Source: Dyella ginsengisoli
GTDB taxonomy: Bacteria > Pseudomonadota > Gammaproteobacteria > Xanthomonadales > Rhodanobacteraceae
Direction of reading: 5' to 3'
Assembly (NCBI RefSeq): GCF_044904665.1
Contig: NZ_JADIKM010000001.1
Location: forward strand, 1,467,995-1,491,994
Length of the DNA stretch: 24,000 nucleotides
In this document: positions 9,954-16,653 of the stretch, piece after piece
How positions within the stretch are numbered: position 1 is the first letter of the stretch
Layout of the letters: every line of letters starts with the position of its first letter
Program-made: the position numbers and the translations under genes
The notes under the pieces: generated by a model
What the model was told of the DNA's origin: nothing
Databases searched by the model: none
The model's input: only the letters and a program-made list of their open reading frames with translations

Positions 9954-10080
9954 CCCGCCTGGTGCTTTGGGTAGGGGTAGCGGTCCGGAGGCGCTGTGAC
10001 TGCAGCGTCCGCGGCGCCGCCCCTTGTCGGCGGCAGCGGGCCATGGCGACCGCCATCGAGTTCGTCCAGGAGAAGAAGCT

Positions 10081-10527
10081 ATGCGACTCAACGAGGGCCA
10101 GACGGGTGCCTGCCACGCAGGCGGCGAGGACATCGTCTACCCGGAAATCAATACCTGCATGACCCTGACCGTCGTCTACAAGGACCCGGCGTACGTCATC
10201 GGGCGGCATTTTTCCCGGCCGGTGCAGGGGATGAAGAGCGTGGCGCCGCTCGAGGTCGTGCAGAACATGCGCTCCAAGCAGGCGCTGATCGGGACGGTCT
10301 CGGCGATCTACCTGATCGGTGCGCGGAACGTCTGGGACGGCACGACGATTGCGCCGATATACGGGTTCATCGGCGAGCTGGACGAGGAGTTCGGGAAGCT
10401 GCAGGAATTCGATACCACCACCTGGAACAGCGTGAACATCAAGTTCGGGTATCTCGGCGACATCGTGGTGGCGCCGACGGCGAGCGGACGGATAGGCACC
10501 GGGCAACCACCCACCCGCTGGTCGTGA
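10081..10527 (+). CDS. Small hypothetical protein with a CheD/CNF1-like Cys...His pattern (candidate deamidase-fold effector); paralog of 15037..15544
   Basis: ATG at 10081 with an upstream AGGAGAAG. The pattern NTCMTLTVVYKDPAYVIGRHFSRP places Cys26 and His43 at the same C-x16-H spacing as the CheD GSCV....DP....G..H.MLP motif. Later IYLIGARNVW resembles IAGGA.MF, and FDTTTWNSVNIKF resembles EDTGG....R.IEF. The ORF-track start at 10024 looks like a non-coding extension. Confidence 0.6.
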   Translation: MRLNEGQTGACHAGGEDIVYPEINTCMTLTVVYKDPAYVIGRHFSRPVQGMKSVAPLEVVQNMRSKQALIGTVSAIYLIGARNVWDGTTIAPIYGFIGELDEEFGKLQEFDTTTWNSVNIKFGYLGDIVVAPTASGRIGTGQPPTRWS

Positions 10528-10599
10528 CGCGACAGCCAGCGGTCGAACGCGTCCCCGGCGCGAGCCGTCCAAGATCGGACGCATGAAAGGAACAAGGCC

Positions 10600-11253
10600 A
10601 TGGCCAACTACAAGTGCAAGAACGACAAATGCAACGAGGTAGTCACCGCAACAAAGAAGCCGGGCAAGTGCACGAAGTGCGGGAAGAACAAAGGGTGGGA
10701 CCTGGTAGTAACGGCCACCACCACCGGACGCGACACCTCCGACGTGCCCGAATGGGACAACGCGGCGACCACCGCGCTGACGGCGGCCAACCTGGTCACC
10801 GGTAGCGCGCTTTCCACGCTGGGTGGCCAGCACGGTCTACCGAACGCTGCCTGCCTGGGGGCGGTGTACGACGCCATTGAGGTGCCGGCCGGCGGCAGCG
10901 ATCGCAACGCGATCTACTTCAACGCCTTCAGCGCCAACTACGACAACGACACCAGCAAGCTGGCCAAGACCGATCTGGCCGCCAACGCGCCGTTCGCGAT
11001 CAACAGCACCGCCTCGCACTGCGCCGAACGCGCCTTGTGGAAGAGCATCTCCGGCAGCCTGACCGGCGTGACCCTGCTGGGCATCGGGCAGACGACACGC
11101 CCCTGTCTGCTGTGCTGCGCTCGCTACCGTGCGCTGGCGGCCAGCAAGAACATCACCATCCTCATCTACTTCGACAAGAAGTACGACAGCCTGCCTGGCA
11201 ATACCTGGCTGCTGTTTCCGGCGACCGCCGGGACGGCGATGTACACGAGCTGA
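10600..11253 (+). CDS. Zn-ribbon + deaminase-fold protein (candidate nucleic-acid/nucleotide deaminase toxin)
   Basis: 217-aa ORF with an AAAGGAA RBS. The N-terminal C6-x4-C11-x12-C24-x2-C27 forms a zinc ribbon. The C-terminal SHCAERALW (codons at 11017-11028), 24 residues, then RPCLLCC (11101-11118) gives the HxE ... PCxxC deaminase signature. Confidence 0.7.
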   Translation: MANYKCKNDKCNEVVTATKKPGKCTKCGKNKGWDLVVTATTTGRDTSDVPEWDNAATTALTAANLVTGSALSTLGGQHGLPNAACLGAVYDAIEVPAGGSDRNAIYFNAFSANYDNDTSKLAKTDLAANAPFAINSTASHCAERALWKSISGSLTGVTLLGIGQTTRPCLLCCARYRALAASKNITILIYFDKKYDSLPGNTWLLFPATAGTAMYTS

Positions 11254-11309
11254 CGAGGCGTCGCAGCGAGCCGCTCATCCAACGCCCCGAACACGCAAGG
11301 ACGCCCGTC

Positions 11310-12011
11310 ATGTGCACACCCGTTTTCACCAAATCCGCTCTCAGCCGCACCTGGGTCAACAAGGTCACCGCCACCGTGGTGACCAAGGCCACCGTGGTGT
11401 TGAACTCGACCAACCTGGGTGGCGGCAGCGGGCCCAGCAATCTGATCAATCCCCCCGGCTGGCTCGACGGCAGCTGTCCGGCCCATCACAACCGCGGGCA
11501 CCTGATTGGCAACGCGCTGGGCGGCAAGGGCGACGATGCCGACAATCTGGTGACGCTGACCTCGGGCACCAATCACCCCTTCATGTACGAGTTCGAGGAC
11601 GCGGTGAAGCGCTTCGTGCTGGCCCATCCCGGTGTCGACTTCCAGTACGAGGTCGAGTGCAACTACGACAAGGAGAACTACACCGCACTGACCGGCTACG
11701 ACATTCCCGGCGCCAGCGGCAATCCGTTCTGCCTGTTCCCGGCACCGGCCTTTCTCACGCTGTCGTTGAAGAAGAACCAGGTGCTGCAATCGCTGCAGAC
11801 CATCAGCGGCTACCTGCCCAAGCCGCCGCCGGATCTGGGGACGCTGGCGGCCGTCACGTCGCTGCGCATCCCCAATGGCGGTTACAAGCTCTATTCCGGT
11901 GCCACGCATACGCTCAGCAATTGCGCCTCGGTCGCCACCGATCCGTCCAACAACGCAGGTCTGAAGCTGGCGGCGAAGAACTACGCCAAGGCGTTGGGTC
12001 ATGTGAGTTGA
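11310..12011 (+). CDS. DNA/RNA non-specific endonuclease-like toxin (Endonuclease_NS_2 / EssD-YeeF-like beta-beta-alpha-Me nuclease)
   Basis: In-frame ATG at 11310. NPPGWLDGSCPAHHNRGHLIGNALGGKGDDADNLVTLTSGTNHPFMYEFEDAV matches the GW...RGHLI..LGG....N.V....N...M..FE pattern of that family. About 100 aa of unassigned C-terminal sequence follows. Confidence 0.72.
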   Translation: MCTPVFTKSALSRTWVNKVTATVVTKATVVLNSTNLGGGSGPSNLINPPGWLDGSCPAHHNRGHLIGNALGGKGDDADNLVTLTSGTNHPFMYEFEDAVKRFVLAHPGVDFQYEVECNYDKENYTALTGYDIPGASGNPFCLFPAPAFLTLSLKKNQVLQSLQTISGYLPKPPPDLGTLAAVTSLRIPNGGYKLYSGATHTLSNCASVATDPSNNAGLKLAAKNYAKALGHVS

Positions 12012-12289
12012 GCATTTCGGAGCGCTGGATAGGGATGCGCAGGCATGGCTCTGGCTGGGGCAGTGCTGCTTTTCAACAAATGGCGTCGATGCGGCCCGCT
12101 ACCGCGCCAGCCTGATTCTGGCGCTGCGGGTGTACAGCACCGGGGTGATGGCCGCATTCGCAACAGGCCAATGTTTTTTTCCCGCTGGCAAGTCAGGCGG
12201 TCGGTCAGCGTGGCATGCGGATGGATCGGGCCTGTCGTCGACTCGCCCGGAATGTTGTCAAGGTTGATGAAGGGCAAAGGAGGGATCGA

Positions 12290-14971: not shown

Positions 14972-15036
14972 GTGCAGCCACGCCTATCTGCAATCACCGG
15001 CCGGCGCGGAGCCGGTATCCCTTGGAGGTTTTTTTC

Positions 15037-15544
15037 ATGAGAGTCGCGCTCGTCGCTCCGGCGGCCGATCAATCACTCCCCGAATATTGCGTGGGGCAAG
15101 CGTCCAGGACGTGCGTCTATCCGGGCATCGCGCAGTGCTTCGCGATCGCCGGCTGGACCAAGGCCGGCATGCTCTGTACCCACGTCAGTCCCGGTGCGAC
15201 CAGCGAAGAAATGGATGCCACCTTCGAGCACCTGCGGAACCTGGGGGGGCGACCAGGCTCAGCGCTGGTACGTGGTGGGCCCGTTCACGGAACACTTCGC
15301 CGTGGCCAAGGCGCAATGGCGCTCGGTCGAGGCGATCAAGAAGACCTTCAAGCAGCAGCTGAAGAACAAGAACGCCGAGCGCTGGATCCTCGACGTCACC
15401 GCCGAACGCCAGGCCTTCAGCTGGGGCATCGACATCCAGGCCACGCCGTGCGACTGGGCGCCGGTGATCTATTTCGACTACAGGAAATGGGGCTCGAAGG
15501 GCGGCTGGACCGATCTGAAGGTCCACAAGTTCGTCCGCTTCTGA
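15037..15544 (+). pseudogene. Frameshifted paralog of the 10081..10527 CheD-like ORF; the reading frame breaks at a G7 run (15243-15249)
   Basis: GGAGG RBS, a T7 spacer, then ATG at 15037. Frame 1 reads sensibly to ...ATFEHLRNLGG and then turns Arg-rich and nonsensical. The +1 frame reads (G)DQAQRWYVVGPFTEHFAVAKAQW...KVHKFVRF to the stop at 15544. Removing one G restores a single 168-aa ORF. VYPGIAQCFAIAGWTKAGMLCTHVSPG aligns with VYPEINTCMTLTVVYKDPAYVIGRHFSRP of the first paralog. Confidence 0.6.
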
Positions 15545-15751
15545 TCGCCGACCTCATCAGTGCATATGGATGTGCAGGCCGGGGTGCTCTCGAGAGGAGG
15601 CGGTGATGCGGGCGTCACTGGCATGCCGAGCGCCTTGCGCGTGTCCTGGAACAGATCGGGGGCGGGGCCGGTCTTTCCAGTGCGTTGGCGAGGGAGCGCA
15701 CGCCGACGCGGCTCCCCGTGATTCGAAGAGATCAGCTTCTCCAGTTCTCCG

Positions 15752-15771
15752 ATCCATCCATCCATCCATCC
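15752..15771. repeat. (ATCC)5 perfect tetranucleotide microsatellite, 14-33 nt upstream of the 15785 start codon
   Basis: ATCCATCCATCCATCCATCC read directly, immediately followed by GAGG (a likely RBS) and the ATG. Confidence 0.9.
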
Positions 15772-15784
15772 GAGGCGAACGATC

Positions 15785-16222
15785 ATGAAACGACTGGCCA
15801 AGGCGACCGGAGCCGGACTCCGGCACTTCTTCGGGGCGCGCGAGAGCATCAGCCAGCAGAAGAACCTGGCGCGACAGTTCAAGGCCGCCGATACCCGCGT
15901 CAGCAAGACGAAAATCCTTGCCGTCATGGGCATGTATGCCGTGTACAAGGGGTCGCCGATCGGACTGGGCAAGAACATCGCCGACAGCATCAAGGTCGGG
16001 CGATGGAAGCACAGTGACCTGAAGCGGCAGCAGGAAGAGGTGGATGCCTTTCTCGCCGGCACCGGGATGTCGCCGCAGGGCATCGCCGCCGTGTCGCGAC
16101 TGGTCCGCCAGGGCGCCTCGGGCGACGACGTCTACGCCAACCTGTCTCCGAATGACGCGCAGATCCTCGCGGGCATCGAAAACGATCTTCATGTCGAAGC
16201 GGGTCATTGCGTGAACTTCTGA
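15785..16222 (+). CDS. Hypothetical protein (145 aa), no recognisable family
   Basis: The ORF has coding-like composition (MKRLAKATGAGLRHFFGARESISQQKNLARQFK...) and one short hydrophobic stretch (ILAVMGMYAVY). A GAGG lies upstream. It is the last gene of the cargo island. Confidence 0.45.
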   Translation: MKRLAKATGAGLRHFFGARESISQQKNLARQFKAADTRVSKTKILAVMGMYAVYKGSPIGLGKNIADSIKVGRWKHSDLKRQQEEVDAFLAGTGMSPQGIAAVSRLVRQGASGDDVYANLSPNDAQILAGIENDLHVEAGHCVNF

Positions 16223-16653
16223 GCCTGCCGCAGAGGGGCCACCGGCCCGCGGATCGTCGCGCCCGTCGCTGGCCGCGGTCGCGGGCGCGGTGCCCACTCC
16301 ATGTCGGGTCGGCCACGGGGGCAGGGCGGCGCCCCTGACGGGCCGCTGCCCGCCGCAAGCCCGGGTTCGATGCAACGGCATGCGTGCCGGACCACGACGG
16401 AAGAGGCCTTCGCGAGTAGGTTCCCCCGAGGGGCGTTTCCAGGGCGTGGCATGGGCAACGCCGCCGACGAGCGGCAAGTGGCCCGGTGATCAAATCCACC
16501 GGCCTTTTACGCACCTGACTATGGAGCGCCATGTCGTCCCGCCAAACGGGATCGGCGCGGCTGCGCAGAACCAGGGGGAGGTGCCGGATGTTTCAGCCAT
16601 GCCGTTCATACGCATTTGCCGCGCGCATCGCCGCGCGTCGGAGGCATTGAGCC

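Follow-up and report, generated by a model that had tools for sequence, protein, structure and literature searches.

The genome of Dyella ginsengisoli encodes a group-3 ("imp", i3-type) type VI secretion system (T6SS) whose structural operon is split, between clpV and the gene of the PAAR spike-tip protein, by an interval of 6.7 kb (9954-16653). Positions are those of the window, the whole stretch of 24,000 nucleotides analysed here (NCBI RefSeq assembly GCF_044904665.1, contig NZ_JADIKM010000001.1, 1,467,995-1,491,994). This interval is probably a hypervariable effector region of the group-3 systems of Xanthomonadales and related Burkholderiales, holding small cargo effectors together with partner proteins that are swapped by homologous recombination. 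That group-3 clusters of Xanthomonadales have a variable effector region here has been known since 2019: they comprise two structural blocks, and the insert that separates these differs in content from species to species and measures 2.2-15.6 kb, or about 5.2 kb in Dyella (Bayer-Santos et al. 2019, PMC6653060). The interest of the region lies in its contents, namely a rare deaminase-like family, a family of Cys/His proteins that are most likely partners of neighbouring genes, and a conserved T6SS gene, o6.

The variability of the interval is evident from a comparison of 80 loci around ClpV relatives and about 20 around homologs of the interval proteins, which are numbered o1 to o8 (Table 1). 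A preliminary description of the region, made from its sequence, had proposed a variable cassette between clpV and PAAR, and this is borne out: content differs among these roughly 100 related loci, even between relatives within Rhodanobacter and Dyella, and the flanks are collinear. Orthologous loci with 84-91% identical ClpV have intervals of 2.4-5.6 kb whose genes are mostly unrelated. The distance from clpV to PAAR is 5.85 kb in L081 (a Dyella sp. assembly, 91% identical), 5.6 kb in L002 (Dyella nitratireducens DHG59), 5.3 kb in L015 (Xanthomonas sp. AmX2), 4.5 kb in L001, 4.3 kb in L049, 3.3 kb in L004 and 2.4 kb in L006. The interval of L081 equals that of the window minus an 830 bp segment bearing o7 (14941-15770), while a Rhodanobacter metagenome-assembled genome (L088) presents the order clpV-o1-o2-o3-o6-PAAR, with o4, o5, o7 and o8 absent. 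Other loci contain an unrelated gene of 369 amino acids (aa), then o6, then DUF6795 and class-3 lipase (Lipase_3) genes (L001); an Aspzincin_M35 peptidase gene followed by o6 (L094, Frateuria soli); an NlpC/P60-like gene of 154 aa with a Tsi1-family immunity gene (PF21565; L006); or EEP nucleases, several deaminase-like proteins and a PknS-like kinase (L084, L086 and L102). In Pseudomonas and Paraburkholderia relatives, VgrG follows clpV after only 80-520 bp.

The edges of these differences are sharp. Nucleotide homology to L088, L001, L049, L094 and L004 stops at the clpV stop codon (9954-9959) and returns at the PAAR start (16651-16654), with internal homology blocks at 10081-12012 (o1-o3, in L088 only) and 13938-14930 (o6), such that the breakpoints coincide with the clpV stop, the o1 start, the o3 stop, the body of o6 and the PAAR start. 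The three modules recognized earlier from the spacing of the genes are indeed independently gained and lost, with o1-o3 occurring alone in L088 and o7 alone missing from L081, and they are taken as real units of gain and loss because the breakpoints fall in long gaps or at gene edges. It is extremely improbable that the interval is instead an ancient, fixed part of the cluster. Such a reading would have the same eight genes in all relatives, which is not seen in the alignment to orthologous loci, and it fits o6 alone, a gene with 64-96% identity and core-like codons whose position is shared by Gamma- and Betaproteobacteria. Most orthologous loci lack the other seven genes, content differs even at 91% nucleotide identity, breakpoints fall on gene boundaries, and VgrG stands close behind clpV in the Pseudomonas and Paraburkholderia relatives. 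For o1-o5, o7 and o8, the locus comparison (L081, L088 and the breakpoints) rules this reading out.

The conservation of o6 also changes the outline of the region. The preliminary description had treated the 6.7 kb as a single island, a view that does not survive; because o6 is conserved and core-like, the interval consists of two variable slots, slot A at 9954-13928 (modules o1-o2-o3 and o4-o5) and slot B at 14943-16653 (o7 and o8). At least 335 homologs of o6, 64-96% identical, are spread over Rhodanobacter, Frateuria and numerous Betaproteobacteria (L093 9001-10011 and L094 9001-10014 among them), and degraded remnants occur in L005 and L074 (X. vasicola). When present, the gene comes after clpV, and the gene that directly follows it is PAAR or that of a tetratricopeptide repeat (TPR)-methyltransferase protein; the betaproteobacterium Schlegelella has clpV-o6-TPR-methyltransferase-VgrG and nothing else inserted. 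Its GC content at third codon positions (GC3) of 0.93 and codon adaptation index (CAI) of 0.745 are indistinguishable from those of the core, and it is better conserved than the VgrG of the same loci. No Pfam family matches o6, no conserved neighbour could serve as its immunity gene, and a sequence search of the PDB returned nothing meaningful. An AlphaFold2 model built from 65 homologs is all-helical with a mean predicted local distance difference test score (pLDDT) of 50.7, too poor for a fold search, and hydropathy points to a hydrophobic Gly/Ala-rich helix at about residues 202-224. This protein is accordingly treated here as a putative conserved T6SS accessory and internal anchor rather than as variable cargo. 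Directly behind its stop codon, where the segment that L081 lacks begins, is a stable GC-rich hairpin with no T-run following.

Modules would be exchanged by homologous recombination through three anchors, the 3' end of clpV, o6 and the 5' end of PAAR, a route proposed because the breakpoints lie at gene boundaries and any mobility gene is absent. The earlier observation that the region has no transposase, integrase or flanking repeat stands: a Pfam scan found neither transposase nor integrase, and repeats occur at chance level only. There is likewise no tRNA at the interval, no Rfam match and no similar plasmid DNA, no match of o1-o8 to the PADLOC defence library, and none to the PHROG phage library except one PHROG of unknown function for o3. 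The interval therefore lacks the marks of a mobile genomic island (integrase or transposase, direct repeats, a tRNA site, plasmid or phage relatives), and mobile-element machinery does not appear to be needed for its acquisition, the breakpoint pattern fitting homologous recombination. The T6SS auxiliary clusters of Vibrio cholerae are a known parallel, consisting of swappable effector/immunity modules with conserved flanks, turned over by homologous recombination with no mobile-element genes. The V. cholerae modules follow hcp, vgrG and an adaptor gene and form clear effector-immunity pairs, whereas the slot of the window lies between clpV and PAAR and its pairing is less clear.

Composition sets the variable genes apart in part. 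The interval had been described as visibly lower in GC than a uniformly GC-rich core. The dip in total GC is weak (64.9%, against 67.2% in the left flank and 69.7% in the right), and tssB, tssC and hcp, at 63-64.5%, are as low as the interval genes. What does hold is the separation of o1-o5 and o8 by GC3 (0.73-0.88, against 0.86-0.95 in the core) and by codon adaptation to the core (0.33-0.61, against 0.64-0.81 for core genes).

The eight small open reading frames (ORFs) noted at the outset are supported as genes by a GC3 frame plot, by their translations and by the gene calls of L081, all on the plus strand and one of them, o7, frameshifted. Relative to L081, the ratio of nonsynonymous to synonymous substitution rates (dN/dS) is 0.03-0.08 for o1-o6 and o8, which shows purifying selection, and because of these values all seven are considered real genes, the weakly biased o4 included. 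The three long gaps between the modules and before PAAR (Table 1) have exactly the coordinates first given. Intergenic gaps are 82-84% identical to L081, compared with 90-95% for the ORFs; across the gap between o3 and o4 the identity is 82%, compared with 92-95% in the flanking ORFs. The last 172 bp before PAAR (16482-16653) are collinear with L081 in a block of about 91% identity, and the preceding 240 bp are unalignable. This block may hold an internal promoter or leader of the PAAR-vgrG unit; no sigma-70 consensus was detected in it, and sigma-70 promoters and terminators in the interval as a whole do not exceed shuffled expectation.

Table 1. Features of the group-3 T6SS cluster of D. ginsengisoli and of its variable interval (window positions).
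Feature	Position	Strand	Description or basis
tssB	137-652	+	Pfam
tssC	659-2152	+	Pfam
hcp	2378-2878	+	Pfam
impE/tagJ	2927-3724	+	Pfam
tssE	3726-4241	+	Pfam
tssF	4238-6133	+	Pfam
tssG	6097-7119	+	72% identical to TssG of a Rhodanobacter genome
clpV	7218-9953	+	left conserved anchor; Pfam AAA_2, AAA_lid_9, ClpB_D2-small
o1	10081-10527	+	148 aa, acidic (pI 5.6); invariant P21, C26, H43; founding member of Cys/His superfamily
o2	10600-11253	+	217 aa; N-terminal 4-Cys zinc ribbon and deaminase-like domain; C141-A-E143 ... P168-C169-x-x-C172
o3	11310-12011	+	233 aa; DNA/RNA non-specific endonuclease (beta-beta-alpha-Me) toxin domain; PF13930
Gap, module 1/module 2 boundary	12012-12289		278 bp, non-coding; no frame signal; L088 homology ends at 12012
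o4	12290-12685	+	131 aa; minimal deaminase-like motif (C-A-E ... P-C-E-N-C); motif only
o5	12831-13580	+	249 aa; OTT_1508-clade deaminase domain (HAE ... GxxK-PICPLC); PF14441
Gap, slot A/o6 boundary	13581-13928		348 bp, non-coding; frame plot, composition, alignment breakpoints
o6	13929-14942	+	337 aa; conserved T6SS-associated protein; no signature
GC-rich hairpin after o6 stop codon	14942-14971	+	11 bp stem, -23.8 kcal/mol, z = -2.8
o7	15037-15544	+	o1 paralog, 168 aa once repaired; +1 frameshift
o8	15785-16222	+	145 aa, basic; no recognisable domain; dN/dS 0.06
Gap upstream of PAAR	16223-16653		431 bp
PAAR spike-tip protein	16654-16941	+	right conserved anchor, without toxin extension; Pfam PF05488, 1.9e-26
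TPR + SAM-methyltransferase protein	~16953-18335	+	between PAAR and vgrG
VgrG	~18361-20445	+	
DUF6931	20460-20999	+	directly after vgrG
FHA protein, then TssK	downstream of DUF6931	+	

The enzymatic character of the contents is clearest in o3 and o5. It had been stated that almost every ORF carries a toxin-type catalytic signature, and this was overstated: Pfam thresholds are exceeded by o3 and o5 only; o2 and o4 bear CxE...PCxxC motifs, o1 and o7 have an invariant Cys and His in common, and o6 and o8 have no signature. The o3 protein matches Endonuclea_NS_2 (PF13930) over residues 45-125 at 7.2e-14 (52.6 bits against a cutoff of 27), its C-terminal half being unassigned, with a dN/dS of 0.06 relative to L081, and as a beta-beta-alpha-Me nuclease it would cut DNA or RNA in the target cell. 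The o5 protein matches PF14441 at 3.6e-8 (33.7 bits against a cutoff of 27). Its N-terminus forms a CxxC...HxxxC zinc knuckle followed by a basic coiled segment, and the GxxK motif ahead of the CxxC, a feature of the clade (PMC3239186), reads G-V-S-K-P-I-C-P-L-C. A 68% identical ortholog that keeps the zinc knuckle stands directly after clpV in L015; a metagenome scan returned no relatives of o5. Sequence searches of the PDB returned nothing meaningful for o3 or o5. Toxins of the OTT_1508 and XOO_2897 clades, including XCV4233 of Xanthomonas, often lack immunity genes, and eukaryotic targets have been proposed for them (Iyer, Zhang, Rogozin, Aravind 2011, PMC3239186). With these o5 shares the Pfam match, the GxxK motif, the lack of a recognisable immunity gene and the linkage to a T6SS in Xanthomonadales; the Xanthomonas and Burkholderia examples of that study are, however, mostly PAAR- or Rhs-linked or host-directed, whereas o5 is a stand-alone product of 249 aa inside the structural cluster of a soil bacterium.

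The o2 protein belongs to a very rare family with no Pfam or NCBIfam entry, weak rubredoxin-like NCBIfam matches being confined to its zinc ribbon. A word-indexed search of 5.8 billion proteins yielded 19 close homologs, an exhaustive profile search of 1.84 billion representatives yielded 26, all of 65-263 aa, and a metagenome scan with the o2 alignment yielded three loci, two of them already known. In an alignment of 23 sequences reaching down to 21% identity, C141, E143, P168, C169 and C172 are invariant and Q164 is also kept, and the four-Cys zinc ribbon is present in about half of the family members. An AlphaFold2 model (pLDDT 74) has the order beta-beta-alpha(CAE)-beta-alpha(PCxxC)-beta with both motifs at helix N-termini, and o2 thus bears the signature of the cytidine deaminase (CDA) fold, [H/C]xE where one helix begins and PCxxC where the following helix begins, with a single strand between the two. 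The top nine Foldseek matches in the PDB are deaminases (CDA, APOBEC3 and DddB, 9k3e), with DYW and SsdA (7jtu) ranked lower; at the sequence level, the sole PDB matches of the o2-family profile are to BaDTF3, at E of about 0.3, and a search with the single sequence returned nothing meaningful. From its motifs and model, o2 may be regarded as a deaminase-like protein and a candidate nucleic-acid deaminase, not as a proven member of the superfamily. The T6SS-linked deaminases DddA (BaDTF1), SsdA (BaDTF2) and DddB (BaDTF3) have the same zinc deaminase fold, predicted in the case of o2, and the same [H/C]xE and PCxxC motifs, a likeness of o2 that is not statistically significant (E 0.3 to 8e-3). 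Those three are C-terminal domains of large PAAR, Rhs or YD-repeat proteins, each with a dedicated downstream immunity gene, in contrast to o2, o4 and o5, which are free-standing, with N-terminal zinc-binding modules in o2 and o5.

The small o4 protein shows the weakest codon adaptation of the interval (GC3 0.73, CAI 0.33) together with a dN/dS of 0.03 relative to L081, and it is found only together with o5. It could be a toxin in its own right or else partner o5. No homology was detected when the profile of o2 was compared with those of o4 and o5. Base deamination in the target cell is proposed for o5 and o2, and possibly for o4, through a zinc site formed by [H/C]xE and PCxxC. The slots of sister genomes are crowded with small proteins bearing deaminase signatures, with motifs such as HAE..CxxC, HGE..PCTKC and DAE..CPSC (L084 11533-12725; L086 10697-11236 and 12426-12899; L090 1508-1924; L074 12714-13238). 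Some of these have weak OTT_1508 or dCMP_cyt_deam_1 matches, and they number up to three per locus, often beside a PknS-like kinase.

A recurrent gene syntax surrounds these putative toxins. The o1 protein has only eight close homologs (dN/dS 0.08) and no Pfam, NCBIfam or PDB match, and it is 21% identical to repaired o7. The frame of o7 switches at a run of seven G residues (15243-15249). Deleting a single G there gives a protein of 168 aa, and in the metagenome locus L102 the ortholog is intact and reads through the site; the tract could be the mark of a pseudogene, a sequencing error or a slippage-prone sequence. Together with relatives in L090, L037, L016 and L102, o1 and o7 have an invariant Pro, Cys and His at 17-27% identity; an o1-family profile detected no homology to L092_225. 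Genes of this type stand directly upstream of o2 in the window, L088, L090 and L102, of a Tse2-like ADP-ribosyltransferase in L037 (10981-12022; PF18648, 9e-22), of an NleD-like Peptidase_M91 in L016 (11017-12233; 5.5e-15), of a 163 aa protein, again in L102 (whose two such pairs lie at 7300-8645 and 10291-11747), and, as o7, of o8 in the window. In every architecture o2 precedes a nucleic-acid enzyme: o3 in the window and in L081 and L088; an OTT-like deaminase of 179 aa in L086, L092 and L102; in L090 an HNH nuclease, beyond a 33 aa o1 remnant; and in L084 an OTT-like protein of 219 aa, 880 bp further on. Judging from the placing of the o1-type genes, o1 and o7 are most likely not toxins but partners, as immunity proteins or loading factors, of whichever gene comes next, and their superfamily may define a new class of immunity proteins or adaptors. 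A deamidase fold like that of CheD or CNF1, suggested for o1 and o7 by their C..H spacing, is a hypothesis that found no support: there is no Pfam match at E <=10, and two PDB profile searches found none of CheD, CNF1 and BLF1.

The pairs o1/o2 and o4/o5 are candidate toxin-partner pairs; acidic o1 and basic o2 are separated by a 72 bp spacer that is 98.6% conserved. The o8 protein, found only in the window and in L081-L083 and retained in L081 in the absence of o7, matches no family or structure in Pfam, NCBIfam, the PDB or the defence and phage libraries, and might act as a small effector or as an orphan immunity protein. A perfect (ATCC)5 repeat (15752-15771) lies 13 nt upstream of its start and is absent from the 87% identical o8 locus of L081; it is possible that this is a contingency repeat.

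In T6SS adaptors the familiar syntax is one conserved family paired with variable effectors, and a single o1-type family immediately upstream of unrelated toxin folds is reminiscent of it. The o1 superfamily could then be a new T6SS adaptor or chaperone class, comparable to DUF4123/Tap, DUF1795/Eag and DUF2169, that loads the downstream small toxin onto the spike, and such loading would explain toxins without a delivery domain. This is nonetheless an unlikely explanation. Purifying selection acts on o8 both in L081, where o7 is missing, and beside the frameshifted o7 of the window, and the o2 homologs of L084 and L086 have no o1-type gene upstream. An invariant Cys/His pair would sooner be expected in an enzyme, and promiscuous immunity superfamilies such as SUKH give the same gene syntax.

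The absence of any delivery domain from the interval, first reported from the sequence, is upheld: neither PAAR, VgrG, Rhs nor MIX occurs in o1-o8 by Pfam, NCBIfam or motif scan. Its presentation as an anomaly is not, as the slots of relatives hold small cargo toxins that are equally free of such domains (the Tse2-like ADP-ribosyltransferase; the NlpC/P60-like protein with Tsi1). Tse1 and Tse2 of Pseudomonas aeruginosa are carried in Hcp, with Tsi1 acting as the immunity protein of Tse1, and because relatives of Tse2 and Tsi1 occupy the same slot in sister genomes, a missing delivery domain is to be expected here. Like Tse1/Tsi1 and Tse2/Tsi2 of the P. aeruginosa H1-T6SS, the window proteins are small and stand-alone, lack PAAR, Rhs and MIX and are encoded beside T6SS genes, and homologous families sit in the same slot of L037, L006 and L002; they differ from Tse1-3 in being unrelated in sequence, in having no Tsi-like gene behind them and in the oversized o5 and o6. 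Apart from o6, the products are of 15-28 kDa, soluble and without signal peptide, and o1, o2, o3, o4, o7 and o8, at 14.8-24.6 kDa, fall within the size of Hcp cargo (below about 25 kDa). We infer that the effectors would be secreted as non-covalent cargo of the Hcp/VgrG/PAAR projectile, alongside their partner proteins. Self-protection may come from o1, o4 and o8, or may be needless if the targets are eukaryotic.

Several observations weigh against the interpretation of the interval as a region of cargo effectors and partners. The usual order of toxin then immunity gene does not fit, as o2 is followed by the enzyme o3, and o3 and o5 by long gaps; no immunity family (SUKH, Imm, Tsi or others) is recognized in the window proteins by Pfam or NCBIfam. 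No partner is universal, o2 homologs lacking an o1-type neighbour in L084 and L086 and o5 lacking o4 in L015. At 27.9 and 35.5 kDa, o5 and o6 are large for the Hcp lumen. The fold matches of o2 lie below significance (best Foldseek E 8e-3, no Pfam family), its domain is never fused to a long polymorphic toxin among the 1.84 billion representatives, and o4 has no Pfam, PDB or profile match beyond its CxE...PCxxC motif. Distant relatives of o2 also lie outside T6SS loci, beside a Ser/Thr kinase and a phosphatase.

This last observation invites the very improbable view that the genes are hitch-hikers unrelated to secretion, that is, defence, DNA-modification or regulatory genes lodged in a recombination-permissive gap. 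Deaminases and nucleases do occur in anti-phage systems as well, and the slot of X. citri carries the regulators EcfK and PknS. Set against this are the PADLOC and PHROG searches, empty but for the one PHROG of o3, the location in this very slot of all close o2 homologs with readable context and of the homologs of o1, o3, o5 and o6, and the bona fide T6SS effector and immunity families in the slots of relatives.

The dearth of immunity genes could be explained differently if the arsenal were aimed at amoebae or fungi, its deaminases and nuclease acting on host nucleic acids and its producer escaping because the enzymes require a eukaryotic substrate or cofactor. This is conceivable, though on balance the less probable account. 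Besides the lack of any known immunity family and of any partner conserved across loci, the slots of sister genomes contain domain types directed at eukaryotes. The product of the first gene after clpV in L002 (10972-11955), 327 aa long, ends in a FYVE zinc finger (PF01363, 1.4e-12), a eukaryotic phosphoinositide-binding domain type, which suggests a eukaryote-directed effector, and L016 has the NleD-like Peptidase_M91. Slot proteins with no family match in L086 (11297-12226), L092 (9371-10228) and L015 (11934-12764) begin with Lys/Arg-rich stretches resembling nuclear localization signals (e.g. KKKRRAKK). Also in favour are the frequent lack of immunity genes among OTT_1508/XOO_2897-clade toxins (PMC3239186) and the group-3 T6SS of X. 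citri, the only one characterized in Xanthomonadales, which protects against amoeba predation (PMC6653060). The same work suggests, however, that the Dyella group-3 system is antibacterial (PMC6653060), and clearly antibacterial pairs, whose partners resemble periplasmic immunity proteins, occupy the slots of other close relatives (NlpC/P60-like with Tsi1, Lipase_3 with DUF6795, muramidase with a partner). Nucleases and DNA deaminases normally harm the producer's cytoplasm in the absence of an inhibitor, and acidic o1 before basic o2, with its conserved spacer, resembles an inhibitor pair.

A bolder combination, rather unlikely as it stands, would see in these loci a new effector logic, with the o1/o7 family as a general upstream partner, adaptor or promiscuous immunity protein, that serves a wide range of unrelated small toxins, alongside free-standing zinc-ribbon deaminases, the o2 family among them, that are injected without cognate immunity to edit the nucleic acids of eukaryotic predators. 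If true, o2, o4 and o5 would be new, compact deaminases outside the curated families and o6 a conserved component of the spike complex.

T6SS effector loci gave DddA, SsdA and DddB, which later became base-editing tools, and slots of this kind have proved to yield enzymes whose activities are out of the ordinary. Among the leads that the window offers are a clear deaminase of the OTT_1508 family together with two deaminase-like proteins of no curated family, all short, free-standing and easy to test, the recurrent arrangement of a Cys/His protein upstream of a toxin, and o6, a widely conserved T6SS-associated protein without an assigned role. It is also a clean natural example of module-by-module exchange, with breakpoints at gene boundaries, inside a structural operon. 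No published effector was found for the anti-amoeba activity of group-3 Xanthomonadales systems, and because the group-3 system has this activity, the slot proteins are candidates for it.

The window shares with the insertion described by Bayer-Santos et al. (2019; PMC6653060) the cluster type (tagJ/impE, FHA, PAAR), the position, the size range and the conserved genes after PAAR and vgrG. It differs in lacking the EcfK and PknS regulators of X. citri and in displaying two sub-slots around o6 with deaminase-like proteins, a nuclease and Cys/His proteins; the content of slots of the Rhodanobacter/Dyella type is not resolved in that review.

The core that surrounds the interval is a complete group-3 T6SS, and the interval genes lie on its strand. 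Of the imp gene order given earlier for the flanks, Pfam and, for tssG, similarity to a Rhodanobacter TssG confirm the genes through TssK; tssL lies outside the window. The best ClpV matches among 185,579 species genomes are those of Rhodanobacter sp. KK11 (96%, over the C-terminal third) and Dyella nitratireducens (92%). A third site of variation, this one separating the TPR-methyltransferase gene from vgrG, exists in some relatives; there, L088 (12603-14438) and L090 (6215-7479) carry, on the minus strand and thus opposite to the cluster, a muramidase- or chitinase-like gene with a small partner; the window holds nothing there. In group-3 clusters, PAAR and vgrG are known to be followed by conserved genes to which no function is assigned (PMC6653060), and the TPR-methyltransferase and DUF6931 genes are probably these. 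More than 25 of the 80 ClpV loci have the former, 29-69% identical and as a rule placed between clpV and VgrG, and a methyltransferase as a fixed T6SS accessory is a puzzling feature of these loci.

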